From the IMG/VR virus record IMGVR_UViG_3300026549_000014, positions 1 through 41,383 of that record: 41,383 nt of DNA; one strand, 5' to 3'. Below the pieces are notes generated by a model. It was not told the origin of the DNA and ran no database searches. It saw nothing but the letters and a program-made list of their open reading frames with translations. The first letter of the stretch is position 1; every line of letters starts with the position of its first letter. This DNA is from a virus. A program made the position numbers and the translations under genes. Positions 3,510 to 40,144 of the stretch are shown one piece after another.

Positions 3510-3548
3510 TGCGATGAACATAGATAATAACACCATAAAGTCTTACAT

Positions 3549-3580
3549 GGGAAGGTAGTCTAGCTGCCTTCTCTTTTTTT
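3549..3580 (+). terminator. Rho-independent terminator closing the lysis/accessory operon
   Basis: GGGAAGG (3549-3555) pairs with CCTTCTC (3567-3573, one G-U), with an 11-nt loop, followed by T7 (3574-3580). Confidence 0.6.
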
Positions 3581-17260: not shown

Positions 17261-19236
17261 TGGGAGACAACACGACACAGCCGGTAGTACAGGCGATAGG
17301 CCCGGAGCAGGTACGCAAGGCCTACGGAATACTGCGCAAGTACAAGGACGGCAAGAAAAATCTGGAAGATCGTATCGTACACAACGAGAAGTGGTGGAGA
17401 ATGCGGCACTGGAGCGACATGGAGACCAAAGAGACCAAGGACGATCCACAGCCTGCGTCCGGATGGCTCTTTAACGCCGTGATCTCCAAACACGCTGACT
17501 TTATGGACAACTTCCCCGGCACGGTGATCCTGCCTCGCGAGCCCGGAGACGTGGAGGAGGCGCAGAGGCTGTCCTCCGTCATCCCTGTCGTGATGGATCA
17601 GGCAGACTACCGCAACGTCTATAGCGATGAGGCATGGTACAAGCTCAAGACCGGGACCGGGGTGTTCGGGGTATTCTGGGACCAGGGCAAGCTCAACGGT
17701 CTGGGGGACATCACGATCAAGTCCATGGACCTCCTCTCTTTGTTCTGGGAGCCAGGGATCACTGACATCCAGCAGTCTGCCAACGTATTCTCGGTGGAGC
17801 TGGTGGACAACGACCTCATTAAGTCCGCATATCCACAGGCGGGGAATGCACTGAGCCAGTCCCAGAACAGCATCCTCACCAAGTACGTGTACGATGATGC
17901 CATCGACACGTCCAACAAGTCTGCCGTGATCGACTGGTACTACAAAAAGGTGATCAACGGCAAGACAACCCTGCAGTACTGCAAGTTTGTGGGAGACGTG
18001 GTGCTGTATGCCACGGAAAACGACACCAGCCGCAAGACTGCCGCACAGCAGGTCCCGGATGTGGATGAGCAGGGCAATCCCACGGGAACAGCGCATACCG
18101 AGGAGGTGCCTGTAGGAGAGAGCGTAGCCGAACGCGGGCTATATGATCACGCACTGTATCCCTTTGTTTTCGATGTCCTCTGGCCGGAGCAGGGCATGCC
18201 CGTCGGCTTTGGGCTCATCGACGTTGGTAAGAGCGCGCAGGCGTCCATAGACATCTTTAACTCCGCGTTCGAGAAAAACGTGCAGTACGGTGCACAGCCG
18301 CGGTACATGATGCGGGCGGATGGAGGCATCAACGAGGAGGAGTTTGCGGATCCCCATAAGCTGATCGTCCACACGGACACATCCCTGGGGGATGACAGCG
18401 TAAAGCCCATCCAGACACCCAACATCGTCTCTGGCAACTATATCGACATCCTTCAGAACAAGGTGGACGAGCTTAAAGAGGTGCTGGGCAACCGAGACGT
18501 CACCACAGGCGGGGTATCCTCTGGCGTTACATCCGCATCCGGCATCGCCGCCCTGCAGGAGAGCTCCGGCAAGACCAGCCGAGACCAGATCGCAACGACG
18601 TATGAGGCACACCGGAAGGTGGTCAACCTCGTGATCGAGCTGATCCGGCAGTTCTACGACCTCCCGCGGCAGTTCCGGATCACAGGTCAGCAGGGAGAGC
18701 GGGAGTTTGTCTCCTACAGCAACGCAGGACTGAAGCCACAGTACCAGGGCAATGATTTTGGCGTGGACTTCGGGTACCGCCTGCCGGTGTTTGACATCGA
18801 CGTAAAAGCTGAAAAGCAGTCAGCCTACAGTCGGGTATCCCAGAATGATATGGCCCTGCAGTTCTACAACAGCGGCTTCTTTAATCCTCAGTACGCCGAT
18901 CAAGCCCTTGCCTGCCTGGACATGATGGATTTCGAGGGCAAGCAGGAGATGGTGCAGAAAGTCCAGCAGAACGGCGGGATGTACCAGCAAATGCTCCAGA
19001 TGCAGCAGCAGATGCTCCAGCTCTCCCAGATCGTGGACCAGCTCACGGGAGGGAAGACCAATCTAGGGGACCAGACCGCACAGCAGATCAACAGTAACTT
19101 GGACAATGCATCACAGCAGGGAGCCGGGGGCGGATCCGCGAACGCTCAGATCCCGCAGCTCACAAAGACAAGCAGTGAGAATCCCATCCCTGCGAGGGCG
19201 CGACAACAGGCATCACAGGCTAACACTCCGACATGA
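17260..19236 (+). CDS. Portal protein with a Q-rich C-terminal tail
   Basis: 658 aa, immediately after terL with a 1-nt overlap. Position and size fit a portal, and the central region shows conserved alpha/beta patterns. Confidence 0.85.
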   Translation: MGDNTTQPVVQAIGPEQVRKAYGILRKYKDGKKNLEDRIVHNEKWWRMRHWSDMETKETKDDPQPASGWLFNAVISKHADFMDNFPGTVILPREPGDVEEAQRLSSVIPVVMDQADYRNVYSDEAWYKLKTGTGVFGVFWDQGKLNGLGDITIKSMDLLSLFWEPGITDIQQSANVFSVELVDNDLIKSAYPQAGNALSQSQNSILTKYVYDDAIDTSNKSAVIDWYYKKVINGKTTLQYCKFVGDVVLYATENDTSRKTAAQQVPDVDEQGNPTGTAHTEEVPVGESVAERGLYDHALYPFVFDVLWPEQGMPVGFGLIDVGKSAQASIDIFNSAFEKNVQYGAQPRYMMRADGGINEEEFADPHKLIVHTDTSLGDDSVKPIQTPNIVSGNYIDILQNKVDELKEVLGNRDVTTGGVSSGVTSASGIAALQESSGKTSRDQIATTYEAHRKVVNLVIELIRQFYDLPRQFRITGQQGEREFVSYSNAGLKPQYQGNDFGVDFGYRLPVFDIDVKAEKQSAYSRVSQNDMALQFYNSGFFNPQYADQALACLDMMDFEGKQEMVQKVQQNGGMYQQMLQMQQQMLQLSQIVDQLTGGKTNLGDQTAQQINSNLDNASQQGAGGGSANAQIPQLTKTSSENPIPARARQQASQANTPT

Positions 19237-20512: not shown

Positions 20513-21508
20513 ATGAAGCACAAGCTCGTTATGTTCCTGCAGTATTTCGCAAATCCGAATACGCAGACAACCACACTTAAGGCCGACGGGAACGATCTGT
20601 CCCCGGAAATGAAGGTGTTTTACAGCAAGGAGCTGCTCGAGAACGCACGCCACGACCACACCTTCAACCAGTTCGGCAAGGTCCAGGCGATTCCGGCAAA
20701 CTCCGGCAACAAGATCGAGTGGCGCAAGATCAGCACCTACGCTCCCGCAACCATGCCGCTGACCGAGGGCGTTACTCCGGACGGCAACAAGCAGAACGTG
20801 ATTGCGATCACTGGCTCCATCGACCAGTACGGCGACTACACGACCGTCTCCGACAGACTGCAGACCGAGGCCATCGACCCCATCGTGGCCGAGATCACCA
20901 AGGAGCACTCTGCTCAGATGGCAGACACGCTCAACATCATCACCCGCAATGAGGTCATGACCGGCACCAACGTCCTGTTCGCAGGCGGCAAGACCAGCCG
21001 CGACACGCTGACCGCAAACGACCTTATCTCCCCTACGCTCATCAACCAGGCCGCAACCATTTTGAAGAAGGCCCACACGCCCAAGATCAACGGTGACTTC
21101 GTGGCTATCATCCATCCCTCTGTCTCCTACGATCTTAGGGAGTCCAAGGATTGGATCGAGACCCAGAAGTACGCGGACCCCAAGAACATTTACAACGGCG
21201 AGATCGGAAAGCTCCACGGCGTGCGCTTCATCGAGGATGCAGACGATAAGGTCTGGGCCAACAGCACCGGTGTAAAGGTGTATGCAACCATCGTGATGGG
21301 TGCTGACGCCTATGCACGCATCGCACAGAGTGCCGAGAATGCCGAGGTCATCGTAAAGGCCGTGGGCTCTGCAGGTACAGCAGATCCCCTTAACCAGCGC
21401 GGGACCATCGGCTGGAAGGCCACGCACGGCGCAAAGGTCCTGTATCAGGAGAGGATGATCCGCATTGAGTCCAGCTCCTCCCTGCAGGCTACCGACGCCG
21501 CAAACTAA
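20513..21508 (+). CDS. Major capsid protein (HK97-fold type expected)
   Basis: 331 aa, strong RBS, canonical position. N-terminal LQYFA propeptide motif. A terminator lies downstream of the next small gene. Confidence 0.88.
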   Translation: MKHKLVMFLQYFANPNTQTTTLKADGNDLSPEMKVFYSKELLENARHDHTFNQFGKVQAIPANSGNKIEWRKISTYAPATMPLTEGVTPDGNKQNVIAITGSIDQYGDYTTVSDRLQTEAIDPIVAEITKEHSAQMADTLNIITRNEVMTGTNVLFAGGKTSRDTLTANDLISPTLINQAATILKKAHTPKINGDFVAIIHPSVSYDLRESKDWIETQKYADPKNIYNGEIGKLHGVRFIEDADDKVWANSTGVKVYATIVMGADAYARIAQSAENAEVIVKAVGSAGTADPLNQRGTIGWKATHGAKVLYQERMIRIESSSSLQATDAAN

Positions 21509-21831: not shown

Positions 21832-22266
21832 ATGAAAGTATCAGACATCATCGCGCGGTATAACGCAGAGATCTCCAATGAGATTGACGACAGCCTAAAG
21901 CTCACGCTGATCCACGACTGTGACAACAGGATCCAGGCAGACATCATTGATACACACTCAAGCAAGTCACCGCTTGGCAAAAAGATGTGGGCTGAGGACG
22001 GTGTGCTCTACATCAGCAAGGCCGCCAAGGCACAGGATATCGAGTACACCATGGATACGGATGTACTCGCCCCCGAGGCGTTTCTCCCTGTCTATCTGCT
22101 CTACATTGATCAGGCCATTGCGTGGGACCGCAACGACATGGACCGGTACAATGCGGCATCGCAGAGGTTTAACACAGCGTTTGGAGAGCTGCTTAACTGG
22201 TATTCCCGTTCTCATGCCGCCCCTCAGCCCAAACCGCACCACTTCCTGCACCGGGGAGGCATGTAA
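21832..22266 (+). CDS. Head-tail adaptor/connector-like protein (tentative)
   Basis: 144 aa, first gene after the capsid block. No motif-level identification. Confidence 0.5.
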   Translation: MKVSDIIARYNAEISNEIDDSLKLTLIHDCDNRIQADIIDTHSSKSPLGKKMWAEDGVLYISKAAKAQDIEYTMDTDVLAPEAFLPVYLLYIDQAIAWDRNDMDRYNAASQRFNTAFGELLNWYSRSHAAPQPKPHHFLHRGGM

Positions 22267-24059
22267 TGTATTTACCAACGGTAGTAGACAACGCTAACAC
22301 CTTTGGCATGGTGGAAACCTGGCTCGGCTATAATCACAATGCGCGGATTGGAGCGGGGGAGTTCTACGACGAGGATAACATGAGCAGCGACAACTACCCG
22401 CTGCTTTCTCCCCGCAAGATCAGGCCCAAGCTGATAGATACCGGCGAGGACGTGATTCGCGGGGCAATGCTGGCAAACGGAAATATCGCCTACCTTGCAG
22501 GCAAGACGTTCCACTACTCTACGGTGTCAATAGACCTGTCGGAGTATTTCGGGGACGACTCGGAGAGCGACCAGCAGATTGTGCGTTTTGGGGCTTACGC
22601 TCTGATTTTCCCCGCGGGGATCTGGATAAACCTCTCCAAAACGGCAGAGTACGGACCCATTAAGGAGTCTATCTCCATCGCCTCCGGGACGACGATCACG
22701 TACAGCATGACAACGATTTCCGGCGCGGAGTACAACCCTACAGTGTCAGAGACCGCTCCGGAGTCTCCATCTGCCGGAGCATACTGGCTTGATACCAAGG
22801 ATGGAGAGTGGGGACTGTACCTGTGGGATGCCAACGCGAAGCAGTGGCAGGGGATCGCCAGCACGTACATCAAAATCACGATCCCTGGGGCCCATCTAAC
22901 AGAAAAGTTTGCCGAAGGTGACGCGGTCACGCTGAACACCAAATATCCGGATATCAACGACGGCTCCATCATACAGGCCATTGCCGATGACTACATGGTG
23001 GTCCAGGGGCTCATGCCCAAGGCTACCGATACCGAGATCACATCTGCAACGTGGACGCTGACCATCACGCGCAAGATCCCTACTCTGGACTACGTGTGCG
23101 TGGCAAATAACCGCGTGTGGGGATGCCACTACGGCGAGGATGGCTACGGCGGACTGATAAATGAAATCTATGCTTCCAAGCTGGGTGATTTCAAGAACTG
23201 GTATACGTATGCCGGGGATTCAACGGATTCCTACGCACTGTCTATTGGCATGGGTGAAAAATTCACCGGAGCTGTCGAGTATCACGGATATCCTACTTTC
23301 TTCAAGGAGGACTACGTGCTCAAAATCTATGGCGCCGCCCCGTCAGAATTTCAGCTAATCACCAACTCATGCCGAGGTGTGCAGGATGGCTCCTACAAGT
23401 CCATCGTCAAGCTCAACGAGTACCTGATTTACAAAAGCCCGTCCGATGTTGTTGTCTACGACGGGAGCAACCCGACATCCATCTCCCAGGCGTTTGGCCG
23501 GGGCAAGATGTACTACGATGCCGTAGCGGGAGGATGCCTCAATCGTTACCACATTGTGATGGAGGACGTGCGGGGCAATCCGGTCTATCTGGTCTATGAC
23601 CTGCAGTACGGGATCTGGACCAAGTACGACAATCTCAGAGTTAAGTGCTTCACGGCAGGAGAAAACGGACAGATCTATGCGGCGACGAAGACCGAGATCT
23701 TTGGCGTAGGGTCCAATGAGAACTCCATGTTCCTGAATCCCATGGTATCCGAGGAGTACGTGAGCTGGTCCGCAACCACGGGTGATATCGGACTAGAGTA
23801 TGCAGGCTACAAGCTCCTCAAGCGGATCACACTCCGGGCATACATCCCTGCTACATCGGAGATCGTGGTACAGATCGCCTACGATGGGCGTCCCTTCGAG
23901 AATGTCGGGGTCATGCGTGGCCACGGAGATGTGCAGAGCAAGTCCTTCGACATCTCTCCGTTCCGCTGTGATCACTACCGGATCCGCTTCTCCGGTCACG
24001 GAGACGTGAGAATCTACACCATGCAGAGCACTGTCGAGGAGGTGAGTGAGAAGAGATGA
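22266..24059 (+). CDS. Large tail structural protein (597 aa; beta-rich, possibly tail tube/nozzle or hub)
   Basis: TAATG overlap with the upstream gene. Its position and repeated beta-strand/aromatic pattern suggest a structural role. No family recognised. Confidence 0.6.
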   Translation: MYLPTVVDNANTFGMVETWLGYNHNARIGAGEFYDEDNMSSDNYPLLSPRKIRPKLIDTGEDVIRGAMLANGNIAYLAGKTFHYSTVSIDLSEYFGDDSESDQQIVRFGAYALIFPAGIWINLSKTAEYGPIKESISIASGTTITYSMTTISGAEYNPTVSETAPESPSAGAYWLDTKDGEWGLYLWDANAKQWQGIASTYIKITIPGAHLTEKFAEGDAVTLNTKYPDINDGSIIQAIADDYMVVQGLMPKATDTEITSATWTLTITRKIPTLDYVCVANNRVWGCHYGEDGYGGLINEIYASKLGDFKNWYTYAGDSTDSYALSIGMGEKFTGAVEYHGYPTFFKEDYVLKIYGAAPSEFQLITNSCRGVQDGSYKSIVKLNEYLIYKSPSDVVVYDGSNPTSISQAFGRGKMYYDAVAGGCLNRYHIVMEDVRGNPVYLVYDLQYGIWTKYDNLRVKCFTAGENGQIYAATKTEIFGVGSNENSMFLNPMVSEEYVSWSATTGDIGLEYAGYKLLKRITLRAYIPATSEIVVQIAYDGRPFENVGVMRGHGDVQSKSFDISPFRCDHYRIRFSGHGDVRIYTMQSTVEEVSEKR

Positions 24060-24205
24060 TAAAGATTGTCTTTGAGCGGCCGGTCCTCGACAGGGATACG
24101 CCACGGGAGAACATCGCCCTGCTGGATACCTGGGCTTCCGACGTCACGGACAAGCTCAACTATCTAGTTAGGCAGCTGCAGAAGGAGAAGGACAATGAAA
24201 AGTGA
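24056..24205 (+). CDS. Hypothetical small protein (49 aa, below the ORF-track cutoff)
   Basis: ATGA overlap at 24056-24059. MIKIVFERPVLDRDTPRENIALLDTWASDVTDKLNYLVRQLQKEKDNEK*. Overlaps the next start by 11 nt. Confidence 0.45.
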   Translation: MIKIVFERPVLDRDTPRENIALLDTWASDVTDKLNYLVRQLQKEKDNEK

Positions 24206-25007
24206 CATCTATAAAGTCCTGGATGTCGATACGGGAGAGGAGTACATCCTGCACGACAAAGACCTCCATGAGCAGGCAGACAGGCAGTCTGCTGATACCT
24301 CTGCCGCGGTCAGCATGGTGGAGCAGGAGACGTCCCGGGCAAAGCAGGCAGAAACACAGCTTCGGGATGCTATGAGCAGAATTACCTCGGACGTGAGTGC
24401 GAAGGTAACAGAAGTGCAGCAGGCTGCACAGAGTGCCACTAATGCGTCTTCTGAGGCATCCGAATACGCGCAGGCGGCATCGAACGCACAGGCATCAGCA
24501 GAGGATGCAGCGAACAATGCAAAGGATGCGCAGACCAAGGCCGAGGGCGCAAGCAAGAGCGCAAGCGTGGCATACTCCGACGCGGTTACGGCAAAGGAGG
24601 AAGCCGAGGCGGCTGTTAAGGAAGCCCTGGAGCATGTCGATACGGCAAAGGGATATGCAGAGCAGGCACAGGCTTCTTCTCAAGGCATCGCAGACGAGCT
24701 GGCAAAAGCACAGGCCGCAGCGCAGGAAGCAGGAGACAAGGCCGCGAGCGTTGCACAGTCCGCTTCTTCTGCCATAGAGAGCGCGCAGGCGGCAGCAAAG
24801 TCCGAGGCAAACGCAGAGAAGTACGCGCAGGCCGCAGCGCAGGATGCGGAGAAGACGGCACAAAACACAGACATAACTGTTCACTATGCACAGTACGTCC
24901 TTCCGGTGTTCGCCTATCAGAACAACAGACTGTATCTCAAGGACACGAGCCGTACTTCATTCGCTGTGTATAAGAACCGGCTGTTGTTCAAGTCTTACGG
25001 AGGTTAA
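24195..25007 (+). CDS. Tail fibre protein with an Ala/Ser/Gln/Glu-rich helical shaft
   Basis: A long A-x-x-A/S-A periodic region (AQSATNASSEASEYAQAASNAQASAEDAANNAKDAQTKAEGA...) typical of fibre shafts. Confidence 0.7.
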   Translation: MKSDIYKVLDVDTGEEYILHDKDLHEQADRQSADTSAAVSMVEQETSRAKQAETQLRDAMSRITSDVSAKVTEVQQAAQSATNASSEASEYAQAASNAQASAEDAANNAKDAQTKAEGASKSASVAYSDAVTAKEEAEAAVKEALEHVDTAKGYAEQAQASSQGIADELAKAQAAAQEAGDKAASVAQSASSAIESAQAAAKSEANAEKYAQAAAQDAEKTAQNTDITVHYAQYVLPVFAYQNNRLYLKDTSRTSFAVYKNRLLFKSYGG

Positions 25008-25009
25008 AC

Positions 25010-25486
25010 ATGGAGATTCCCAGTGGATACACAGCCCTCTCGCTTGTGGGCTTTACGGACCGGGGCACATACAGCGCTACAGAGACGTATGTGAAGAACG
25101 ACTTGGTCCATTACAAGAACTCAATATTCTGTGCAAAGCAGGACGACCTTACCGGCGTAGAGCCTACGGATGACGGAACTAGCTGGTACTACTTCGTATT
25201 CTCCCCGGATGACGTCGAGGAGAATGCAAGAACAGCCGCCAACGCGGCAGCCACAACGATACAGAAAGCGACCGAAACGGCGGCATCAGCAGCAGCGGCA
25301 GCCAATTCTGCGTCAGCCGCCTCCAGCTCTGAACAGTCTGCCGGAAAGCATGAGGCTAACGCCTCTGCATCAGCAGCGGCGGCAGAAGAGGCCGCAACGA
25401 AAGCTGCAGGATACGGAGCGGCGGCAACTTACAGCATCGGCATTAACCCAAGCACCGGCCACATGGCTGTGTTTTATAACGAGTAA
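25010..25486 (+). CDS. Tail fibre-associated protein: N-terminal Y-x-x-x-D-x-V-x-Y..W-type motif plus an Ala-rich helix
   Basis: RGTYSATETYVKNDLVHYKNSIFCAKQDDLTGVEPTDDGTSWYYF resembles the carbohydrate-binding-like motif common in fibre proteins. Confidence 0.65.
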   Translation: MEIPSGYTALSLVGFTDRGTYSATETYVKNDLVHYKNSIFCAKQDDLTGVEPTDDGTSWYYFVFSPDDVEENARTAANAAATTIQKATETAASAAAAANSASAASSSEQSAGKHEANASASAAAAEEAATKAAGYGAAATYSIGINPSTGHMAVFYNE

Positions 25487-25497
25487 GGAGGAAATGA

Positions 25498-27045
25498 ATG
25501 GCACAGGTTTTTGACCTTCCGGGATACGATCACGGAGCAAGAACAAGCGCGGCGCTTGAGGCGATCGCGGAAGCCCAGGAGGGGAATACTTCATCCCTGT
25601 CTGCACTTGAGAAGCAGATTGTAAAGGGATACGCGCGTGAGAGAAACGGCAAGGTATTCGCAACCAAGATCTATCGGTTTGCATCCAATACCACCTCTAT
25701 GGGAGAAAGACTCCGGGATTCTGTTGGACTTACCTGCACAGCATCCACAGACACCGTAGCGGGCACGGATGACTTTGCAACCGCATCCCCGATCTTTACC
25801 TATCAGAGATGTAACTACACAAGAGAGGACGACGGAACAGCAAGGCCTATTGCTCTTGAGGGATCCCCGACATATCGCACAAGCGGAGCCTATGATGTCG
25901 GAAACGTATATGCTACATTCTACTGGAATGTGGAGCATCACGGGACTTACGATGTTTTCTATATGTCTGACACTCCGCACCCAGAGCTTGGTCTTGTGCC
26001 CTGGTGTGAGGCTGTAAAAGCCGACGGAACCGTTCTCCCTTTCTATGTGCATTCCTGCTATGCGGCAGCCACGGCATCGGATGGACTGCTCCGGTCTCAG
26101 CCCGGTCTCTCTCCGGCATACAATATCTCGTACAACTCGATGATTACCGCCTTCCAGAAGAAGGGCACCGGGTACTGGGGAGCAGGATCTGAGAGAAATC
26201 TTTGGGGTATGCTGATGCTCATCATCAAGTATGCCACCAAGAACGTTCAGAAGATCTTCCGCGGCCATGCAGATACCTATTCTATGAAGGCGGTGGTGGC
26301 CTATGCAGAGACCGGGACAAAACGTATCCTTATAGCAAGCAACCCCGGATGGTATGCAGGGGCCTGCATTTCCCTCGGATCTGCCGACATTGACCAGGAT
26401 AGTTCTGCCGCACACGACATTGTAGACCGGGCGAAAATCGCAAGCATCGAGAAGGTTACAATCGACAGCACAACGTATGTTGCACTCAATCTGGACGTGT
26501 CGGCAACTTTCGACACCGCTACCACGGAGTACGTGAAGTGGTATCCGACATACACCGGAGAAACCGACAAGGTTATCGGACATCTCGATGGCTCCTATCT
26601 GTCCAATGCTGATGGGAGACATCCCTTCCGGATCCTGGGCACAGAATTTGCGTGGGGCCAGGCTTTTATTGAGTCCAATGCCGTTATGGAGAAGGACGCA
26701 AACGGGGATTGGCTCCAGTACTTTGCTCCGAGAGGAACAAAGCATGTAGCAAACGCACATACAGGCTACGTGCTTGCTGGTAAGATTCCCGGAGCAACCG
26801 GAGACTATTGGAGCGGAGACATCGACGTGGACACCAGGGGCTTTATGTGTCCCTCCACGGTGGGATCGTCTGACGCGCTTGGAACGGGTGACCGAGTATG
26901 GGGACCGCAATCCGGAAGCAAAGGTGATCTGCGAGAGCGATATACCGTCGGCTACCTGTGGGACGGTTCGAACCTCGGCCTTGCGCATGTCCATTGCTGG
27001 AACGTGCTTTCTGGGGCGTCCTGGCACTACGGGTGCTGCGATTAG
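25498..27045 (+). CDS. DGR target protein (probable receptor-binding protein) with a C-terminal variable region
   Basis: 515 aa in the fibre module. The last 34 codons are the VR, which matches the downstream TR apart from substitutions at TR adenines. The C-terminal W/Y/G/C pattern is consistent with C-type-lectin-fold DGR targets. Confidence 0.85.
   Translation: MAQVFDLPGYDHGARTSAALEAIAEAQEGNTSSLSALEKQIVKGYARERNGKVFATKIYRFASNTTSMGERLRDSVGLTCTASTDTVAGTDDFATASPIFTYQRCNYTREDDGTARPIALEGSPTYRTSGAYDVGNVYATFYWNVEHHGTYDVFYMSDTPHPELGLVPWCEAVKADGTVLPFYVHSCYAAATASDGLLRSQPGLSPAYNISYNSMITAFQKKGTGYWGAGSERNLWGMLMLIIKYATKNVQKIFRGHADTYSMKAVVAYAETGTKRILIASNPGWYAGACISLGSADIDQDSSAAHDIVDRAKIASIEKVTIDSTTYVALNLDVSATFDTATTEYVKWYPTYTGETDKVIGHLDGSYLSNADGRHPFRILGTEFAWGQAFIESNAVMEKDANGDWLQYFAPRGTKHVANAHTGYVLAGKIPGATGDYWSGDIDVDTRGFMCPSTVGSSDALGTGDRVWGPQSGSKGDLRERYTVGYLWDGSNLGLAHVHCWNVLSGASWHYGCCD
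26941..27042 (+). repeat. DGR variable region (VR)
   Basis: Gap-free 102-nt alignment to 27116-27217. I count 13 mismatches. Confidence 0.9.
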
Positions 27046-27068
27046 TTCGCCCTGCTTCCGGGGGTGAA

Positions 27069-27103
27069 TGCCGGGCTCTGCCCGGCAGAGGGGATCTCCC
27101 CTC
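27069..27103 (+). promoter_or_regulatory. Two adjacent GC-rich hairpins between VR and TR
   Basis: TGCCGGGC tct GCCCGGCA (27069-27087, 8-bp stem) and GAGGG gatc(t) CCCTC (27088-27103). Confidence 0.75.
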
Positions 27104-27115
27104 AAAGGGTACGGT

Positions 27116-27217
27116 AATACCGTCGGCAACCTGAGGAACGGTTCGAACCTCGGCCTTGCGAATGTCAATTGCAGGAACGAGCTTTCTAGGGCGAACTGGA
27201 ACTACGGGTGCTGCAAT
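27116..27217 (+). repeat. DGR template region (TR)
   Basis: Contains 26 adenines, 13 of which differ in the VR. AAC/AAT codons line up with the variable residues when read in the VR frame. Confidence 0.9.
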
Positions 27218-27401
27218 GGTGTTAAAAGTCCTCAACAGCAGAGGCAAAAGTAAATAGTAATAGGTTACCGTGCGCGCTCATAACAAGCGCCGTTCCGGCC
27301 AGTACCCGGAGCGCCTGTGCGGAATGCACAAAGTGGCTGGGAAGCAGGCGGGCTAGTAGGAAAGCGAACGCTCGTACCACAGCACTAATCGAAAATTTTG
27401 C
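27218..27401 (+). ncRNA. Non-coding spacer between TR and RT, presumed part of the DGR template/priming RNA
   Basis: No ORF. GC-rich with local stems (for example GCGCT cataaca AGCGC at about 27273-27289). The role is inferred from the BPP-1 DGR RNA. Confidence 0.4.
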
Positions 27402-28508
27402 ATGAAGAGAAAATGCAATCATACCGATATTACGGACAGAGAGTTTATCCGGAAAGCAATACACGAGTGTTTTACTCAGAAGGGCAGCAAGGCCTTCGAG
27501 CGAAGCGATGTGAAAGAACTCTTGGAATGGTGTGATCATTCCGAAGAAAAGCTGATAGATATGCTCCGGGCGGAGATCGTAGAAAGGCGGGTATCTCTCC
27601 CTCCTGTCCGTTATGCCGACCGGTACGACCACTCAAACGGCAAGCTCCGGCACATCACAATAGAGCACACCAAAGAGCAGATATACGATTACATCGCATC
27701 GGATGGGCTCGACGAGATTGCCGGGAGAATCGGTCATTATCAGATAGCCTGCAAGAAAGGCCAGGGACCACTCTACGGTGCCAAGGTAATACAGGGATGG
27801 CTACAGGATGAGTCGATCCGATACGGCGTAAAGGCGGACGCGCAGAAGTGCTATCCGAGCATCAGTAAAAGAAACATAATGCGGTGGCTCAGAAGGCACG
27901 TGAAGAATGACGATCTGCTATATCTGATTTACTGCCTGCTCTGTACATCAGACCAAGGCCTTCCGATCGGAAGCTATCTCTCCATCCGGCTGTGCGCTCT
28001 GTATCTCTCTGACCTGTATCATCACATCGAGGGCACGTACTTTGTTGAGAGGCGCGGCAAGAAACGAAACTGTGTAAAGCACGTCATGATTAACCTGGAC
28101 GATATCTATATCTTTGGAACGTCAGCCAAGGAACTTCATAGGGTGATGAACGGCTTGTTACCTTTTGCTAAAGCCATGGGCCTTACGATCAAACCAGACT
28201 GGAGGCTCCTTGATTTGGGGCCAAAGAACCCGGACGCACACATAGATGCGCTCGGGTATCGGATCTATCGGGGCAGGATCACAATGCGGCGCAGGAACTA
28301 CGTTAAAACAAAGAGGGCACAGCGGATGTTTGAGAAGAGCCCAAACATCGTCAATGCCAGGGCACTCGTCAGCTACTACGGAATGTTCGTGAAACACACA
28401 AACAGCAACAGATTCAATCATAAATACCAAGCAAGCAGAGCAGTACGCTCTGCAAGAAAGGTGGTATCGCAATATGATAAAAGCAAGATTCGACGGGAAA
28501 CAGCCTGA
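27402..28508 (+). CDS. Reverse transcriptase (DGR type)
   Basis: RT motifs in order: GVKADAQKCYPSI, LPIGSYLSIRLCALYL, HVMINLDDIYIFG, AKAMGLTIKP, IDALGYRIY. About 368 aa, with no intron maturase or endonuclease domains. Confidence 0.88.
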   Translation: MKRKCNHTDITDREFIRKAIHECFTQKGSKAFERSDVKELLEWCDHSEEKLIDMLRAEIVERRVSLPPVRYADRYDHSNGKLRHITIEHTKEQIYDYIASDGLDEIAGRIGHYQIACKKGQGPLYGAKVIQGWLQDESIRYGVKADAQKCYPSISKRNIMRWLRRHVKNDDLLYLIYCLLCTSDQGLPIGSYLSIRLCALYLSDLYHHIEGTYFVERRGKKRNCVKHVMINLDDIYIFGTSAKELHRVMNGLLPFAKAMGLTIKPDWRLLDLGPKNPDAHIDALGYRIYRGRITMRRRNYVKTKRAQRMFEKSPNIVNARALVSYYGMFVKHTNSNRFNHKYQASRAVRSARKVVSQYDKSKIRRETA

Positions 28509-28809
28509 ACTGACCGCGTACACAGAGGGGGATTCCGTTCGGTATATGATCTGCGAGAACGGCAAGGAGTACTCGGAGACTGATACAGGGGGAAACGAGT
28601 CTGGGGGATTCGAGTATGACTTCGCAGAATTCGTCGAGGCTACATCCGTTCTTTCTCCGGATACCGTCAAGAAGAATCCGGGAGAGTACCTGAACTACGT
28701 TCCTGTCGGGGAGACCAAGAAGGCAAGCACAGAGAAGCCTGCAACTCTCGAGCAGAGAATCTCTGACCTCGAGGAGACTGTCGCCGACGCATTGGGAGGT
28801 GAAGCATGA
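28474..28809 (+). CDS. Hypothetical acidic protein (111 aa)
   Basis: Overlaps the RT 3' end by 35 nt. AAGGTGG upstream. Confidence 0.55.
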   Translation: MIKARFDGKQPELTAYTEGDSVRYMICENGKEYSETDTGGNESGGFEYDFAEFVEATSVLSPDTVKKNPGEYLNYVPVGETKKASTEKPATLEQRISDLEETVADALGGEA

Positions 28810-28943
28810 GCGCGAAGATTCGGATCATGATCAGAGTAGCAAAGCGCAGGATGGCCGCGGGGGAGACAATCGACGAGATTCTCGAGGGATGGCCGAACCT
28901 CACGGATGAGGAGAAGCAGGAGATTCGGGATGGAGTCGCCTGA
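28806..28943 (+). CDS. Hypothetical small protein (45 aa)
   Basis: ATGA overlap. MSAKIRIMIRVAKRRMAAGETIDEILEGWPNLTDEEKQEIRDGVA*. Confidence 0.4.
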   Translation: MSAKIRIMIRVAKRRMAAGETIDEILEGWPNLTDEEKQEIRDGVA

Positions 28944-29067
28944 ACTGCTCATAGAAATGTCGGGTACAATCGAACAGCTCACGAAGCTGTGCGTGGATCT
29001 GATTCAGGAACTGGCACAGTACAGAAGCATCGAGGCCGAGGAGAAGAAGCTCCTCGATATCATCTAA
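28930..29067 (+). CDS. Hypothetical small helical protein (45 aa)
   Basis: MESPELLIEMSGTIEQLTKLCVDLIQELAQYRSIEAEEKKLLDII*. Ends just before a terminator. Confidence 0.4.
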   Translation: MESPELLIEMSGTIEQLTKLCVDLIQELAQYRSIEAEEKKLLDII

Positions 29068-29070
29068 ACA

Positions 29071-29100
29071 GGGAGGACCGGGAGACCGGCCCTCCTTTTT
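29071..29100 (+). terminator. Rho-independent terminator
   Basis: GGGAGGACCGG gaga CCGGCCCTCC followed by TTTTT. Confidence 0.75.
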
Positions 29101-29159
29101 GGTGCCCTATAAATTATGGTAGGCACTCGGTACGATAAACACAGAATAGGAGGCAAATT

Positions 29160-30680
29160 ATGGCATCCAGCAAATCTTCTAGTTCAACTAAATCCGGGAG
29201 CTCGACATCCTCCTATACAAAGGGAGGGAGCACAACAAACGGGGCAAGCACCTCTCAGGGAGCAAGCACTTCCCAGACAGTAGGTTCTTCCTCTTCGTCT
29301 GGCGGCTCTTCCACCGTAGGCGGCAGCTCTTCTCATACCGAGAGCGATACCTATTCCCAGTCCCATACCAGCAGTGCGTCCATCGGCGGGAGTACGTCGC
29401 AGTCCCAGTCCTCGTCCCTGGGCGGCAGCGCGTCTCAGTCCCAGTCCTCATCTCTGGGCGGGAGCACTGGCCAGACCACAGGAAAGTCGTGGTCGTCTGG
29501 GCAGGTATCTGATGAGACACAGGCACAGCGTGAGAGATGGCAGCAGGACTACGTGCCATCTCAGCAGGTACAGGATACGTATAAGCGCCTGCAGGACACG
29601 CTAAACAGTAAGCCCGGGGCCTTTTCCTCGTCCTACACAAACCAGCTCGACAGCCTGTACAGCCAGATTCTCAATCGCAAGGCGTTTTCGTACAATCCGA
29701 ACGCCGATGCGATGTATCAGGCGCTGAAGCAGCAGTACCAGACGCAGGGCAAGCAGGCCATGCAGGACACTATGGGGCAGGCGGCAAAGCTGACCGGAGG
29801 ATACAGCTCCAGCTATGCACAGACAGCCGCACAGCAGACCTATCAGAACTATCTGACGCAGCTTGCTAATCAGGTACCATCCCTGCGTAATCAGGCATAT
29901 CAGGAGTACACAGACGAGGGCAACAGGCTCAACAACCTGTACTCCCTTGCCGGTCAGCAGTACAACCGCGACTACCAGAACTACCGGGATGCAATGTCCG
30001 ACTGGCAGAACAACCGCGCTTACGATACCTCCGCGTATCAGGATGAGCGGAACTTCGACTATCAGAACTATGCTGGCAACCGGCAGTACTGGAATCAGGA
30101 ATACTGGAACGAGCGCAATGCCGAGCAGAGCAACGCTTCCAACAGTAAGGCTAATAACTGGAGCAACACTATCGGGAATGAGCAGTCCCAGAACTGGTCC
30201 ACCAGCCGGAGCAACAGCCAGAGCAATAACTGGAGCAAGAGCGAGAGCGACACGAACAGCCACAGCCATACCACGAGCGATACGAATACCAGTAACTGGA
30301 GCAACACAAGTAACTGGAACAATTCCATCAGCCAGCAGGCGACGGCGGCACAGAATGCGCAGGCAACCAACTCCTTGTCCAACACGGATAATTGGAACTC
30401 TTCCCTGTCCAACACCAATGCGTGGAGCAACACGAACAGCTCCTCCATTTCCTCCGGATCCGGGAGTTCCAAGTCCTCCAAGAGCTCTTCTTCCGTGGCA
30501 TCATCGACGCCGAGCTATATGTCCGACGCACAGCTTCAGAAGATGGAGCAGCAGCTTGAAGGCAAGAGCCCGGAGGATATCCAGAAATACTTCGATACGT
30601 TGTATGCTGCGCAGACCAAGGACTCCGACAGGAAACGAATCATCCAGCAGGCACAGTACTTCGGTTATAACAAAAAGTAA
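29160..30680 (+). CDS. S/N/Q/Y-rich low-complexity protein (506 aa), probable virion internal/ejection or tail-associated protein
   Basis: RBS AGGAGG. Ser-rich N-terminus with a duplicated SQSQSSSLGGS. A Q/Y-rich core (MQDTMGQAAKLTGGYSSSYAQTAAQQTYQNYL). A C-terminal region with about 8 NW(S/N) repeats. Confidence 0.75.
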   Translation: MASSKSSSSTKSGSSTSSYTKGGSTTNGASTSQGASTSQTVGSSSSSGGSSTVGGSSSHTESDTYSQSHTSSASIGGSTSQSQSSSLGGSASQSQSSSLGGSTGQTTGKSWSSGQVSDETQAQRERWQQDYVPSQQVQDTYKRLQDTLNSKPGAFSSSYTNQLDSLYSQILNRKAFSYNPNADAMYQALKQQYQTQGKQAMQDTMGQAAKLTGGYSSSYAQTAAQQTYQNYLTQLANQVPSLRNQAYQEYTDEGNRLNNLYSLAGQQYNRDYQNYRDAMSDWQNNRAYDTSAYQDERNFDYQNYAGNRQYWNQEYWNERNAEQSNASNSKANNWSNTIGNEQSQNWSTSRSNSQSNNWSKSESDTNSHSHTTSDTNTSNWSNTSNWNNSISQQATAAQNAQATNSLSNTDNWNSSLSNTNAWSNTNSSSISSGSGSSKSSKSSSSVASSTPSYMSDAQLQKMEQQLEGKSPEDIQKYFDTLYAAQTKDSDRKRIIQQAQYFGYNKK

Positions 30681-30688
30681 GGAGAGCT

Positions 30689-33600
30689 ATGGGGACAAAG
30701 TTTGATGACGACGAGGAGCGCCGCAGAAAGCAGCAACAGGAAAGATTGAAGGCGCAGGAAGATGCGCGCAAGGCAGATCAGGCAGAGGCGGCACGGCAGG
30801 CGGCCAATCTGCGCATGCAGAAGAACGCCATGCACTCTGAGGAGCGCATCTCCGATGAGAACGACAACACCGCGCACTTTGCTCCGAAGGCCATTGACAA
30901 GAAGACCCATCAGGTCACGTCCGGAGGTCAGATCAACGACAACTTCTCCGGATACATCGACTACAACGAGGCCGCAAAGCATGTCACCGCTGATCAGGTA
31001 CAGGCTGCGCACGAAACGCTTTCCGACATCCTCGGGTCTTCACATAGCTCCAAGAAGTATAAGGCATACTTCGGAGACAGCTATATTGACACGCAGAAGC
31101 AGTCCATGCACTCCGAGGATACGGCCTTCCTTGCCAAGGATAACCCTGCTGATACCTCCCTGCAGGCCGCTTACGACTCTGCGGTAAAGTCCCTCAAGTC
31201 CAAGAAAGAGCTCTCCATGAATGGGGAGGGCAATGCCTACAACCTCATGAGCTGGGACAATCCTACGACCCAGACGAGCATGAAGGGTGCATACAACCCG
31301 TTCAAAGACCAGAATGGCTCTATGGAGGACTACTATGCCGATCAGTACAAGCAGGCACAGCAGAACTACAACTACGTCCCCAACGCCCTGCAGAACGCTA
31401 TTGCTTCCGTTTCTCCCTTCGTGAATCCTGTGACAGGGCAGAAGCAGGCGACCGATCAGGACGTCTTCGCGGCCACACAGGCGCGGATGAATGCCTCTCC
31501 GGAGGACCAGTACGCCTATCAGGTAGCGAACCGGCGAAACGACTCCACCGGGTGGCAGACCGGACAGCTATCCGATGCGGACAAAGCTGAACTGCAGAGA
31601 TACCAGAACGCCATCGATGCGGCAAGCAAGGACAAGAATGCTCCGACGCTGAACCCCTATGAGACATACCGGTATCACAACCTCGTGTATGGCTCCCTGA
31701 CTGATGCACAGCGCAAGGCTGTAGACAACTACCAGACTGCCTACGATGAGTACCAGGGGGCTCAGTCTGACCTCAAAAACGGGGCTTCTGATGCGGATGC
31801 AGAGGCAAACTATGCCTCCATCGGTCTGACATCCAACCGGAAGGATAATGCTACCCTCCGGGCCAACGTGGTGTCGGCAAAGCAGAAGGTGGAACAGGCG
31901 CGCAACTCCATGCGGGCAGCAGGGCTCACGGATGAGCAGATCAATAAGTTCGTCGGATCCGATGACACGGACAAAACCTACAAGAACTCCTATCTTGGTT
32001 ACAACAGGAGCTATAAGGACTATCTGGACACGCAGGACGAGGCCAAACAGGTCACGGGCAGGAATGATGCCTGGGGCCTTTATAATCGTGCCGCGTCCGC
32101 TGTCGTGTCTTCTGCGGTCTCCCCGATTACCAACATTGGGTCCTTCGTCAACTCGCTTGGGGCAAAGTCTGCCGACCCCGGAACCTCAAAGAATGTCTAC
32201 GGCAACAAACTGAACAATGCCATGGACGCTTACAGAGCCGGAAACTCTGCGTATATGGGGAAGACTTACGGCAAGGCCGGAGAGTTCCTGTACAATGCCG
32301 CGCAGTCCGCCGGGGACTCGTTTGTCAATGGCATGATCATGGGCCCTGTCGCAAACAAGGTCTCCGGAGCCGCCGGAAAGATTCTTGGGAACGGAACGAA
32401 GGCTGCCTATGTGGTTGATAAGCTGAGCAATCTTGTGGGCTCCTCTGCCTTTGGCGCTGGAGCTTATGCGGACCGCATCAGAGAAGGCCAGGAGCGCGGA
32501 CAGAGTGCCGCCGGAACACAGGCTGCAGCTGTCGGTGCGGGCCTTGCGGAGATGGTGACTGAGGCGTGGTCTCTGGATTCCTTCACCGACATCCTCACGA
32601 AAAAGGGCGCAGCAGCCATGCGCAATACCCTTTCCAACATCCTCGTGCAGGCAGGCGTAGAGGGATCCGAGGAAGCCGCTGGCGATATCATGAACCGCGT
32701 GATCGACGACGCGGCTAATGGCAAGAACTCCGAGTACAGGCAGGCTGTGTCTGCATACCAGAAGCAGGGCATGACCGAGAAGCAGGCGAAGAAGAAGGCC
32801 AACGTGGACTTCCTCTCCGATACTCTGCAGGATGCACTGGCCGGTGCTCTGTCCGGTGGCGTGCTGGGCGGAGGTGCGCATGTCATGAACAACATGCAGA
32901 CCGCACAGCAGGCACAGACCGAGACCGCAGGGTATACCTCCGAGGACTTCCGGAACACCGCGGAGAGCTACAAGAAAGCCTCCGAGGGGATGACCGATAC
33001 TGGCGCACAGAAGTACTACAACGACGCAGCCAAGGCGGCAAACGATATCGCAGACCGCATGGACTCCGGGAAAAAGGTGAGCTCCTCCCTGTACTCCAAA
33101 CTGTACAACTCTGCCTATGAGGCGGAAGGAATCGAGAGCGAGAACCGGAAGCCTTCCGAGGAAAAGCAGGAGGTCACTCCGGACGATCAGGTCCACTTTA
33201 CTGTCCCCGAGGGAGCAAAGACGGTCGAGGAGGCCCTCAACTCTGGGGAGTCTGCACAGGAAAAAGTGAACAACATGGACCGGATCTTTGCGCGCAAGTC
33301 CAATAACATGGGCGCAGGGAATGTCCATGCCGCGATGCAGAGCGCACAGACCGCGCAAGAGCTCGTGGCCGCAAAGCGTGAAGCCGATATGTCCACTGAT
33401 GCCTCCGCACGCGATATCTCCGAGGCTTACTACAACCTGTACCAGGGACGCATGATCCAGAACGGACAGGCGACAGCAGAGGATTTCCAGAAGGCAGAGG
33501 CCTCCCCCACCATGCAGGAGGTTTATCAGGCCGCGAAGGAAGGCCATGCGCTCAACATCTCGGAGTCTGACCCCATGGATCTCCGGATGGCACAGAATGC

Positions 33601-36600
33601 GGGCAAACAGGCCAACATCCTGCTCAACTCGAACAGCGTGCTGGAGAATCAGGATCTTTCCAACGTGCAGATCCATCCTGCCACACAGAAGTCCGAGGCA
33701 TACGCAACCATCGACGGCAAGGACTACAGCCTCGACTCCCTCAACGATACAATCCAGAACCGGGCTTTACGTGTCCGCGTGGCCGGTGCAAGTCAGCAGT
33801 CCACGCAGGAGCTGGCAGACCTGTATCTCAAAGACGCGCCTCAGGGGATGAGCGAGGGGAGATGGAATACCACCTTCTCAACTCTGGAGGCTGGCGGAAG
33901 CGCAGGCAGAAACTTCGACGAGGCTTACAAGGCCATCGGCGGGTCTGCGGCCATGGTTGACGCTGACACTGCACGGCAGATCTACAATGCCGGGGCTGCG
34001 GCTGCACAGGCGCAGATCTCTGAGAATGTGAAGCGCTCCGGACAGTCTGTGGCGCGATATGGCACCGGATCCGTGATTGACTCCCGCAAGAACAGCAAGG
34101 AAGCCCTTCCCTATATGCCTGTCGTTGAAGCCATGGCCAAGGCTACGGGGGTGGATTTCTACCTCTCTGATGACGCCCCGAGCAATATCAACGGCACCTT
34201 TGACCGGGCGATGTCCCGCGTCATGATCAATACCAACAACTCCGACGCTGTGCTCAATACCCTGTTCCATGAAGGCATGGGCGAGTACATGCAGGCGTAC
34301 AATCCGGAAGGCTACAAGAGCGTCCAGAAGCTGGTATCTGACTACCTCGTAGATACGGACGGCCTCAAGAATGTTGCCGCAATCGGAAAGAAGTATCAGA
34401 GAGCATATCAGGCCGTGGAGGGAACCAAGTCCTTCTACGATGCCATGAGCGAGGCCGTGAACGACTCTATCGCAGGCATGTTCTCCACGGATGAGGGCAT
34501 CAAGCAGTTCACGGACTGGACCTACAAGCACGACAGCAGTCCCAAGTCTGCCCTGCAGAATGTCGCGGACTACTTCAAGCGCATCGGCGAGGCGTTCCAT
34601 AACCTCATCACGACCGGGCATCTCTCTGGCACTTCCCAGAGGACGGCACGGATGGCAGAGGATAGGGCAAGCCATATCCGGCAGATTATCCTTGACGAGA
34701 TGGACAAGGCTGTGGAGAACTCTAAAGCCGTCAGCGTTGATGAGAGTGCAAAGAGCGGAGTAGCATACTCCCTGGCTTCAAACGAGGAACAGACAGATAA
34801 GACGGAAAAACCTACAGAGCACCCGAGTGAATACTCCGATCTCCGCCATTCTCTGAATGACATCGGAGATGATGACTTCTTCTCCACTATGGGTACTGAG
34901 GAGAACCCAGACGATCCTGACGTAAAGCGCCGGCACGAGCTCATGGCTGAAGCTGAGAAAGCCCTCTCTGATGTGCATGTAGACGACAAGTATCTCAAGG
35001 TAACGGCCAAGGGGATCATTGACAGCTTTGGGTCCAGCTACGACAGCAAGACTCTTGCCGAGAACCTGCGCAAGGTGTTCTCCTATGCCAAGACGCACGA
35101 GGGATTCATGGGTTCCTCTGACTATGAGGGGATCATGGACGACGTGCTCCGGCCTGTGATGGAGGCATCCGAGCAGACAGACGACACCCAGCTCCGTCAC
35201 GTAAAGGAGATCATGGCCGCGCATCCGTTCCATCTCACTGCAGACCAGATGGCCATGGTGAGTGATGACTACCGCGGATGGAAGGCGCAGTATCCGGAGC
35301 TCAAAGTATCCAAGAACGCACCTTCTACGCTGGACCAGCAGTTCAGTGAGATCGCGGACCAGCTCCGGCAGGCAGGCATTGCGGATCTTGATGAATCAGC
35401 CAACGAGACGGACCAGCTCACGGAACTGTTGGATGCCATCGACTCTGCGCAGCCTATCTCCCTGTATGCCTTCTCCAACGAGGAAGACGCACAGCAGGCT
35501 GTAAAAGATATGGCCGATACCGTAATGACGTCCTATCTGTCTGCTGCAGAGGCTGACGCGCAGGGGCAGGCGCTCGTGCGGATCCGGACGGCCAGAGACC
35601 GAATCATCGACGAGGGCAAGGCGCGCAGAAAGAAAGCAAGCCAGGATTATCAGGCAAGACTTTCCGCTGCTCGCAAGGACATCGCAAAGTCCAACCGCAG
35701 TTTCAAAGGACAGGGCCTTTCCAACGATGAGAACGTCAAGCGCTTAACCAGCGCCGCAGAGAGCCTGGAGGCACAGGCAAAGGAACTCAGGTCTCAGGCG
35801 CTTTCCTCCGATGCAAAGACCGACCAGGCAAAGCTGGCAACCCTCAATGCCAAGGAGAAAGCGTCCGCTGATAAGGCCGCACTTATGCAGAGAATGAGAG
35901 AACAGAGGGCGGCAGCACTGGAGAGGCAGGCACAGCAGTACCGACAGACCGTAGCGAGACTCAAGACACAGTACCACTCCAAGGCGGAGCAGCTTGCGCT
36001 TACCAAGGCCAAGAACACAGAGAAGTGGAAGAACTACCGCGAGAAGCAGGCGCGCAATGCAGAACTGGAGAAAATCACCAAGAGCTACGACAGCCTGTAC
36101 AAGCAGCTCATGCATCCCACGGACGAGAAACACATTCCGGAGGAGTTCAAGTCCGCTGTAGCAGAGTTCCTGGACTCCATCAACATGATCCGGCCCGACA
36201 TCCGGTACGATAACAAGAGCGGAGTGTACCGCCTCCGTATCTGGGACGGTACCTTCGAGAAGGACGGGAAGGCGCACTACACGGAGAGCGGATATTCCAC
36301 CTATAACGAGGCATACCAGGCGTTCTATCGGTATGTCTTCGAGGATAACGGCACTCTCTCCTCCAAGAACGCGACCATCCGGGCGAAGATGCAGGGAGTG
36401 CGCGATCTGTACGAGCAGGCAGCAAAGGAAGATGAGGCAGAGAATATCTCTCAGCTCCTCGACCCGGATCTGTATGAACGCCTCAAGACACTCTCGAGCA
36501 GGAATGTAGCCGCACTGAGCAGTGATGAGCTGCACACGATCTCCCTTGCCCTGCAGAACATCCAGCATGCGGTAAACAACGAGAACGAGCTGTTCAGACA

Positions 36601-40135: not shown

Positions 40136-40144
40136 GGAGGAGTT

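Follow-up and report, generated by a model that had tools for sequence, protein, structure and literature searches.

A very probably active diversity-generating retroelement of accessory-free architecture in a 41-kb phage genome

Introduction

Can a phage diversify a tail protein by mutagenic retrohoming when no Avd protein is detected beside its reverse transcriptase (RT)? This question is raised by IMG/VR virus record IMGVR_UViG_3300026549_000014 (positions 1 to 41,383, one strand), referred to here as the window, i.e., the whole 41,383-nt stretch that was analysed. In it, a variable repeat (VR) at the 3′ end of a tail-module gene is followed by a template repeat (TR) and an RT gene. An original prediction, made from the sequence alone, described the locus as a complete diversity-generating retroelement (DGR) with the signature of Bordetella phage BPP-1. 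Our analysis indicates that it is very probably an active DGR, of accessory-free target-TR-RT architecture. The phage genome that carries it is complete, 41 kb long, and encodes a portal of P22 type and a capsid of N4-gp56 type.

The DGR catalogue exceeds 30,000 entries, and three of its clades characterise gut phages whose tail proteins are diversified (PMC8144416). The window record, held by JGI/IMG, may already be in that catalogue (Roux 2021). Passages of Wu et al. 2018 (PMC5758913) state that 29% of curated DGRs are accessory-free (Architecture A) and that one lineage (Lineage 3) lacks avd; they suggest an Avd-independent mechanism, and pose as a question how DGRs work without Avd. Since gut phages often carry DGRs and accessory-free cassettes are known, the element itself is expected. 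What goes beyond routine annotation is direct population evidence, mapped cis elements of an Avd-less lineage, and RT motif variants.

Results

VR and TR differ only at TR adenines

The core features of the element are as follows.

25498-27045, + strand: target (variable protein), 515 aa, tail/receptor-binding module, recognised from its open reading frame (ORF), PHROG matches, and fold match
26941-27042, + strand: VR, full TR homology, final 34 codons of the target ORF
26953-27029, + strand: hypervariable core of the VR, columns 13-89 of the repeat alignment, 21 mutable positions in 13 codons
27030-27042, + strand: invariant, GC-rich 3′ end of the VR, CGGGTGCTGCGAT, columns 90-102, a boundary resembling the initiation of mutagenic homing (IMH) site
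27116-27217, + strand: TR, non-coding donor copy, from the 102-nt repeat alignment
27402-28508, + strand: DGR reverse transcriptase, 368 aa (RVT_1, 5.9e-9; phrog_1423, 7.6e-45)

Exact realignment of VR and TR was ungapped over 102 nt, with no indel, and gave 13 mismatches, all of them an A in TR, in agreement with the original prediction. TR contains 26 A, 30 G, 25 C, and 21 T. All C, G, and T positions are unchanged in VR, and the base counts agree with the predicted substitution of 13 of the 26 adenines. The chance that 13 of 13 mismatches fall on 26 A of 102 positions is 1.1e-9 (hypergeometric). The homology ends sharply at both repeat edges, and a gap of 73 nt separates the two copies. An adenine-tolerant scan of both strands revealed no second VR in the window. 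Recomputation gave the same VR and TR translations as those quoted earlier, and the predicted gene layout was also correct: the VR is in frame as the final 34 codons of the 515-aa protein, and the RT gene starts 185 nt past the last TR base. The 13 mutable codons comprise eight AAY, three AGG, one GAG, and one TAC; an A-to-N change creates no stop in any of them.

Near-identical genomes vary at TR-adenine positions

We compared seven genomes, the window and related loci L001-L006, each from a different assembly. Their target proteins form one 90%-identity cluster (seven sequences, seven assemblies); they differ mainly in VR codons that have a TR adenine, and two of them differ only there. L001-L004 and L006 are the same phage as the window; in L005, a cassette of 92-95% identity lies in another phage backbone. 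The VRs of the seven genomes had 13, 15, 19, 18, 17, 11, and 21 mismatches with their own TR (sum 114), of which 112 were on TR adenines. Between L001 and the window, 9 of the 77 VR-core bases differed, whereas none of the 7,392 bases aligned elsewhere did. L002 showed 12 VR-core differences, with 1.3% divergence elsewhere. The TR was the same in the window, L001, and L002, and one A-to-G change was common to L003, L004, and L006. The VRs of these last three all showed G at that site, as would follow from faithful copying of a non-adenine TR base. Each of the 21 TR adenines of columns 13-89 varied in at least one of the seven genomes; nothing outside varied. Such a pattern marks TR-to-VR transfer that is recent, directional, and specific for adenines. 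Five close loci contain all or part of the RT (in L006, just the first 55 residues), and its identity across them is at least 99.2%.

The same bias was found at greater distance. In 93 related loci, 62.5% of TR adenines were substituted vs. 0.71% of other bases, and 1,421 of 1,479 VR/TR mismatches were at adenines.

Comparison of the genomes also corrected two figures. In all the compared genomes, the VR has T at column 1 and G at column 100, and G27040 of the VR differs from A27215 of the TR in all genomes of this phage. The predicted count of 13 mismatches is thus right; however, two of them (columns 1 and 100) are fixed boundary differences and not DGR variation. The adenines at columns 2, 4, and 101 had no substitution in any compared genome. 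The sequence space had been put at 4^26; because only 21 adenines (26953-27029) vary, it is 4^21, i.e., 4.4e12 DNA variants and ~1.1e12 stop-free protein variants. The six near-identical genomes show no change in columns 90-102; in L005, only column 99 of this stretch departs from its own TR. D515 of the target is invariant within the protein family. By analogy, this VR 3′ end is the putative counterpart of the BPP-1 IMH (PMC5758913).

Two other candidates around the repeats were discarded. An ORF at 27068-27253, which reads TR in the VR frame, was not accepted as a gene, since its start codon is not kept in the related locus L007. A 10-nt perfect inverted repeat (27044-27053 and 27188-27197) between the target stop codon and the TR interior is not kept in L005 and is probably due to chance.

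The RT groups with DGR RTs

Pfam gave a weak RVT_1 match to the RT, and NCBIfam gave a sub-threshold match to a group II intron RT model (45 bits; cut-off 300). The sole PDB sequence match of the protein was 8ub7_A; according to the fold-search description, 8ub7 is a DGR ribonucleoprotein RT (bRT of Bordetella phage). An RT family profile built from 39 members matched the 8ub7 bRT over the full length with 157 bits (E 7e-45), vs. at most 77 bits for group II intron RTs and 42 bits for retron Ec86. The AlphaFold2 (AF2) model of the RT had a predicted local distance difference test score (pLDDT) of 93.8; its top fold match was again 8ub7_A, with template modelling (TM) scores of 0.75/0.83. A search of Rfam revealed no intron, retron, or other family at E <= 1 in 26800-27600. 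The profile scores and fold match support the grouping of this RT with DGR RT, and not with group II intron, retron, or defence RTs. The original prediction that the enzyme is of DGR type, and not of group II intron, retron, or Abi type, is thereby supported. Its wider DGR interpretation also holds: the mismatches are at adenines only, the RT is DGR-type, and the VR is not invariant among related genomes but hypervariable in near-identical ones, at TR-adenine positions only.

The target is a tail protein with a predicted C-type-lectin-type fold

No Pfam or NCBIfam family was found for the target protein. PHROG matches were phrog_17147 (1e-68) and phrog_5302 ('tail protein'). The AF2 model of the target, built with 67 homologues, had pLDDT 92.8, and its top PDB fold match was TaqVP (5vf4), a DGR variable protein of Thermus aquaticus (E 2.8e-5, probability 1.0), at 11-12% identity and TM 0.38/0.49. 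TaqVP is treated in PMC6328139 in the context of the CLec (C-type lectin) fold common to DGR variable proteins. The window target is larger than TaqVP, with extra N-terminal and inserted domains. Matches in BFVD were mostly annotated as tail collar fiber proteins, and also included Treponema variable protein (TvpA) and sulfatase-modifying-factor-like labels. The model thus supports a C-type-lectin-type fold for the target, as had been predicted for its C-terminus, and the tail role assigned to it is consistent with the PHROG tail families and the BFVD annotations.

A conserved element follows the VR

Comparison of VR-TR intergenic regions of relatives revealed an element just past the target stop codon, which consists of a box and two hairpins.

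27061-27069, + strand: conserved box GGGGTGAAT, single occurrence in the window, 0 expected by chance
27070-27086, + strand: hairpin HP1, GCCGGGC-TCT-GCCCGGC, inverted repeat, 24 nt after the target stop codon
27087-27103, + strand: hairpin HP2, AGAGGGG-loop-CCCC, inverted repeat

The pattern GGGGTGAAT-N(7-30)-AGAGGGG by itself, used to scan a viral collection, gave 120 loci. A TR/VR pair is present in 93 of 135 motif-bearing loci, with the VR end 7-59 nt upstream of the motif; RT and target of these 93 loci are only 23-40% identical to those of the window. The motif follows the VR; it was not observed behind the TR, and is present in a single copy per locus among the loci listed. In locus L018, it stays with the VR even though a 661-nt insert parts VR from TR. 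HP1 has 68 distinct sequences in the 93 loci, with loops mostly GAA, GTA, and GTAA. Its pairing is kept in 92% and 90.5% of cells in two fixed-length classes, compensatory changes occur in 6 of 7 pairs, and the covariation score was reached by 0 of 500 shuffles. The GGGG/CCCC stem of HP2 is kept in nearly all DGR loci of the lineage. In the window, HP2 is not followed by a T-run; it is therefore not a canonical terminator here. A literature search with the GGGGTGAAT string returned unrelated primer sequences only.

Guo et al. described a GC-rich hairpin/cruciform with a GRNA loop, 4-34 bp past the VR, that is needed for BPP-1 target recognition (PMC3240598). HP1 matches such a DGR target-site hairpin/cruciform in position and form, and may be its counterpart; the conserved boxes that flank HP1 appear to be lineage-specific.

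The GGGGTGAAT-hairpin-AGAGGGG/CCCC arrangement was also observed in three mutually related loci (L050, L078 at 4269-4310, and L087) without detectable RT or target. The L078 copy is between a radical-SAM gene and dapF, beside a prophage. These copies could reflect chance, a terminator pair, or another use.

The TR RNA is bracketed by a duplex

The region from the TR 5′ flank to the RT gene contains the following features.

27109-27118, + strand: 5′ strand of a duplex, GTACGGTAAT, which overlaps the first 3 nt of TR and pairs with 27264-27273
27218-27401, + strand: spacer (Sp), 184 nt, structured conserved non-coding RNA region, from a 13-relative alignment and fold
27264-27273, + strand: 3′ strand of the duplex, GTTACCGTGC, candidate 'cPRT Stop' analogue, pairs with 27109-27118
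27274-27290, + strand: stem-loop GCGCT-CATAACA-AGCGC, directly after the duplex strand, in minimum free energy (MFE) and centroid folds
27347-27374, + strand: 3′ spacer hairpin with invariant TAGTA...CGAA, from invariant columns in 13 relatives

The TR-bracketing duplex is present in the MFE fold. It was tested by comparing the longest helix in own-locus and cross-locus pairings of 77 non-redundant loci; this test replaced RNAalifold, for which the spacer alignment was poor, and RNAduplex z-scores, which were uninformative. When the TR 5′ flank was paired with the spacer of its own locus, the longest helix had a mean length of 10.35 bp; in cross-locus pairings, the mean was 8.13 bp (p = 5e-19). 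In 50 of the 77 loci, a helix of 8 bp or more lies directly against the TR, with 38 distinct strand sequences. RNAalifold on the poor MAFFT spacer alignment supported 3 pairs, all in the 27347-27374 hairpin. The TAGTA...CGAA hairpin is found also in Butyrivibrio phage Arawn, and may be an RT-binding element.

In BPP-1, sequence upstream of TR pairs with the spacer, and a stem-loop follows; this 'cPRT Stop' arrangement has so far been surveyed only in Avd-bearing DGRs (bioRxiv 10.1101/2023.10.23.563531). The TR-bracketing duplex of the window is a candidate analogue of the cPRT Stop, and the stem-loop at 27274-27290 would correspond by position to the one after the BPP-1 duplex. The duplex offers a ready explanation of why the TR adenines at columns 1, 2, and 4 are never transferred. 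A simple scan of 26700-27700 revealed no terminator.

No Avd is detected in a complete phage genome

Positions 1-127 and 41257-41383 of the window form a 127-nt exact terminal direct repeat. The window is therefore a complete phage genome of ~41.26 kb, circularly permuted or terminally redundant. It encodes a P22-type portal (17260-19236), an N4-gp56-type capsid (20513-21508), a terminase, a holin, a CHAP lysin, and an ERF/SSB recombination module. When 22000-32000 was compared with 50,697 phage records by megablast, nothing matched.

Searches for the Avd/four-helix-bundle families (PF05635/TIGR02436) gave none among the matches listed for Pfam and NCBIfam (the top 25 families of each search) across 116 ORFs of the genome. 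No Avd was found in 10 further ORFs around the cassette, or in the precomputed Pfam annotation of neighbour genes in L003-L005 and L011-L013, and no HRDC or MutS-like accessory gene was detected. The description of the DGR as complete in the BPP-1 sense is therefore not supported. By gene layout, the element belongs to the accessory-free target-TR-RT architecture and not to avd-TR-RT (Architecture B of Wu et al.). A host factor may take the place of Avd.

The gene next to the RT is:

28474-28809, + strand: 111-aa acidic ORF (isoelectric point, pI, 4.3), which overlaps the RT 3′ end by 35 nt

Searches of Pfam, NCBIfam, and PHROG gave no family for this ORF. A homologue sits after the RT in every RT-bearing relative, and directly after the target in RT-less loci. 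It is possibly a gene linked to the tail module.

Two observations concern the rest of the genome. A giant ORF of 2,912 aa (30689-39427, +), 2.2 kb downstream of the RT gene, matched only phrog_22978 (unknown function), and had no Pfam family and no PDB sequence match; given the N4-gp56-type capsid and P22-type portal of this genome, it might be an N4-like virion protein or RNA polymerase, which is a lead only. At 39491-41014, a BppU_N-domain protein (214 aa) and a 289-aa ORF resemble the pair that stands just before the target in L005. The two might form another receptor-binding module, at a distance from the DGR target.

Relatives show mobility and loss of the cassette

Relatives occur in Lachnospiraceae-type and other Bacillota metagenome-assembled genomes and in human faecal viromes. 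Those with an intact RT all have a TR/VR pair with adenine-biased mismatches. In L005 (1-4000), the cassette (target 92%, RT 95% identical) lies behind a myovirus-type baseplate module with LysM, YQBQ, Sheath_initiator, and BppU_N, whereas the context in the window is podovirus-type. Thus, the target-TR-RT block moves between phage backbones.

Decayed relatives were also found. L019 has a truncated RT and a decayed TR with many non-A mismatches; in L017, only the TR 5′ flank is left as a scar; and L118 has an RT remnant. These remnants indicate that DGR loss recurs. Several loci (among L060, L073, L075, and L109) have the target, the VR-proximal element, and the 111-aa homologue without RT or TR.

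In two relatives, a 172-aa stand-alone RNase H gene (PF00075, 1.8e-13) was observed:

L018 2168-2686 and L147 (MT835469.1) 3150-3656: RNase H gene, between the VR-proximal element and TR

The DGR accessory classes in passages of Wu et al. 2018 (PMC5758913) are avd, HRDC, MSL, and CH1; RNase H is not listed there.

Discussion

Comparison with known systems

Like the BPP-1 DGR (mtd-avd-TR-brt), the element has its VR at the C-terminus of a phage receptor-binding protein, and the differences are at adenines only, on AAY codons. Its RT is closest to bRT in sequence and fold; the invariant VR end is GC-rich and a hairpin lies downstream of the VR; and a duplex forms between TR-upstream sequence and spacer, as in the cPRT Stop. 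In contrast to BPP-1, no avd was detected, the target has no sequence similarity to Mtd, and the RT has S-I in place of S-Q and NLDD in place of YMDD. VR/TR homology stops at the stop codon, and the recipient signal appears to be a lineage-specific box with two hairpins, in which the HP1 loop is TCT, not GRNA.

Closer in layout are Architecture A1 and the avd-less Lineage 3 in passages of Wu et al. (PMC5758913), in which target, TR, and RT likewise follow one another on one strand, accessory genes are absent, and the VR is C-terminal and of C-type-lectin class. The likeness to Lineage 3 is one of gene layout, not of RT phylogeny, and a VR-proximal box or bracketing duplex is not mentioned in those passages. 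The element also resembles, by its features, gut-phage DGR clades 1, 4, and 6 (Roux et al. 2021, PMC8144416), which are phage-encoded, have C-Lec tail targets, and are broadly active in nature. In the cultured rumen Butyrivibrio phages Arawn/Idris (MN882550), the RT is 26% identical and belongs to the same broad DGR lineage. These phages have a 111-nt VR/TR pair with 9 mismatches, all at adenines, hairpins after the VR, the spacer motif GGGCTAGTAG...CGAAAACCC, and no annotated avd. They differ in that the VR-proximal element is rearranged, with the hairpin ahead of the G-box; no annotated ORF overlaps the RT 3′ end; and the phage backbone is another one.

Is the element active?

Several observations weigh against an active element of this kind. 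The variation was seen between assemblies of different samples, not inside one population. The usual DGR RT signature, [I/L/V]GxxxSQ with YxDD, is diagnostic but not mechanistically defining; in the window RT, IGSYLSI stands in place of the bRT motif IGSLTSQ, and NLDD in place of YMDD. No accessory gene was detected, yet Avd is essential in BPP-1; a divergent Avd would be hard to detect. A template-primer duplex between TR 3′ end and spacer with a priming adenosine, as in BPP-1, was not identified (own-locus 5.2 vs. cross-locus 5.4 bp, p = 0.71), and a simple promoter/terminator scan of 26700-27700 revealed no promoter-like site between VR and RT. The RT variants are common in the family: the last position of the IGS motif is I in 65 and Q in 37 of 120 members, and the first residue of the xxDD box is N in 43, Y in 50, F in 15, and H in 12. 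Because the element is evidently active, the variants IGSYLSI and NLDD must be compatible with function.

The unusual residues in the RT active-site region, together with the lack of a detected Avd and the known decay of L019, L017, and L118, could suggest that this is a relic, a former DGR now inactive with old VR/TR differences. We consider this very improbable. The nine VR-core differences of L001 arose against identity over 7,392 nt, and the 12 of L002 against 1.3% elsewhere; the window has no non-A mismatch; and the RT ORF is intact, well kept in close loci, and confidently modelled. An ordinary diverged duplication that happens to lie beside an unrelated RT (group II intron, retron, or defence) would account for the weak sub-threshold match to the NCBIfam group II intron model, and is hardly credible: the mismatch pattern has a chance probability of 1e-9, the RT profile strongly favours bRT, no intron or retron RNA was matched in Rfam, and the population data show change targeted to adenines. 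More weight is due to the view that the GGGGTGAAT-HP1-AGAGGGG/CCCC element serves the tail gene as a transcriptional or regulatory signal (terminator or attenuator), with TR-RT merely downstream, and is not a DGR target-recognition site. The element is retained in RT-less loci, HP2 is followed by a T-run in some relatives (L014, L023), and a similar motif is present in the three related non-DGR loci, in one of them between host genes. However, the RT-less loci bear scars of DGR loss, and the window HP2 has no T-run. The exact sequence of the element is kept while the adjacent proteins fall to 23-40% identity; it is always tied to VR and never to TR, even with the L018 insert; and the HP1 loops, mostly GAA/GTA/GTAA, are near the GRNA loops of functional DGR target hairpins (PMC3240598). 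A purely regulatory role is thus unlikely.

A further proposal is that the 111-aa ORF overlapping the RT 3′ end is a new DGR accessory protein that replaces Avd. Of the 25 loci L001-L025, 22 have a homologue (29-86% identity) directly after the RT, in most cases with an overlap, as does MT835469.1; the loci that carry it span podovirus-, myovirus-, and siphovirus-type backbones; and in just 1 of 50,697 phage records was it found, again abutting an RT. The RT-less loci L017, L022, L060, L073, L075, and L109, however, have the homologue directly after the target, which argues against a tie to the RT, even if these loci look like recent DGR-loss derivatives, so that this test of linkage is not fully independent. 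The ORF is also acidic, whereas Avd is described in passages of Wu et al. (PMC5758913) as basic and nucleic-acid-binding, and it matches no family in Pfam, NCBIfam, or PHROG. On these grounds the ORF was mostly rejected as an Avd substitute, and we regard such a role as rather improbable.

Proposed mechanism

For the active DGR that we favour, the following course is proposed, in part by analogy with BPP-1. An RNA would be made across TR (27116-27217) and the 184-nt spacer, and would be folded by the TR-bracketing duplex (27109-27118 with 27264-27273) and the spacer stem-loops. The 368-aa RT, probably primed in cis, would copy TR into cDNA, faithfully except opposite adenines, and this cDNA would take the place of the homologous VR at the 3′ end of the tail-protein gene. 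Transfer would be limited on the 3′ side by the invariant GC-rich end (27030-27042), with the VR-proximal signal (27061-27103) just downstream, where the hairpins may be recognised at the DNA level. On the 5′ side, the bracketing duplex would act as the stop. Limits on both sides would explain why only 21 adenines are randomised. The outcome would be randomisation of these 21 adenines in 13 codons, i.e., ~1.1e12 stop-free variants on a predicted receptor-binding surface of C-type-lectin type. Such a system may operate without any Avd substitute.

A more far-reaching scheme can be put forward only tentatively, and we think it more apt to be wrong than right. Under it, mutagenic retrohoming would be truly Avd-independent: a remodelled RT (NLDD, S-I) would act alone on a TR held by the cPRT-Stop-like duplex. 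The recipient would be marked by GGGGTGAAT-HP1-AGAGGGG/CCCC, not by a TR-like IMH, and this mark would be recognised directly by the RT or by a cDNA-RNA complex. The sub-lineage of L018 and MT835469.1 would have added an RNase H accessory.

Significance

The window provides a compact accessory-free example in which the variable core, the VR end, the box and hairpins, the duplex, and the spacer hairpins are all mapped. The system of ~1.6 kb (27046-28508 plus the VR), with its natural variants, would make Avd-independent retrohoming experimentally tractable, and may also serve targeted mutagenesis in vivo as a simpler chassis. For the biology of this phage and its relatives, the prediction is that they keep re-tuning receptor binding, with ~1e12 possible tips.

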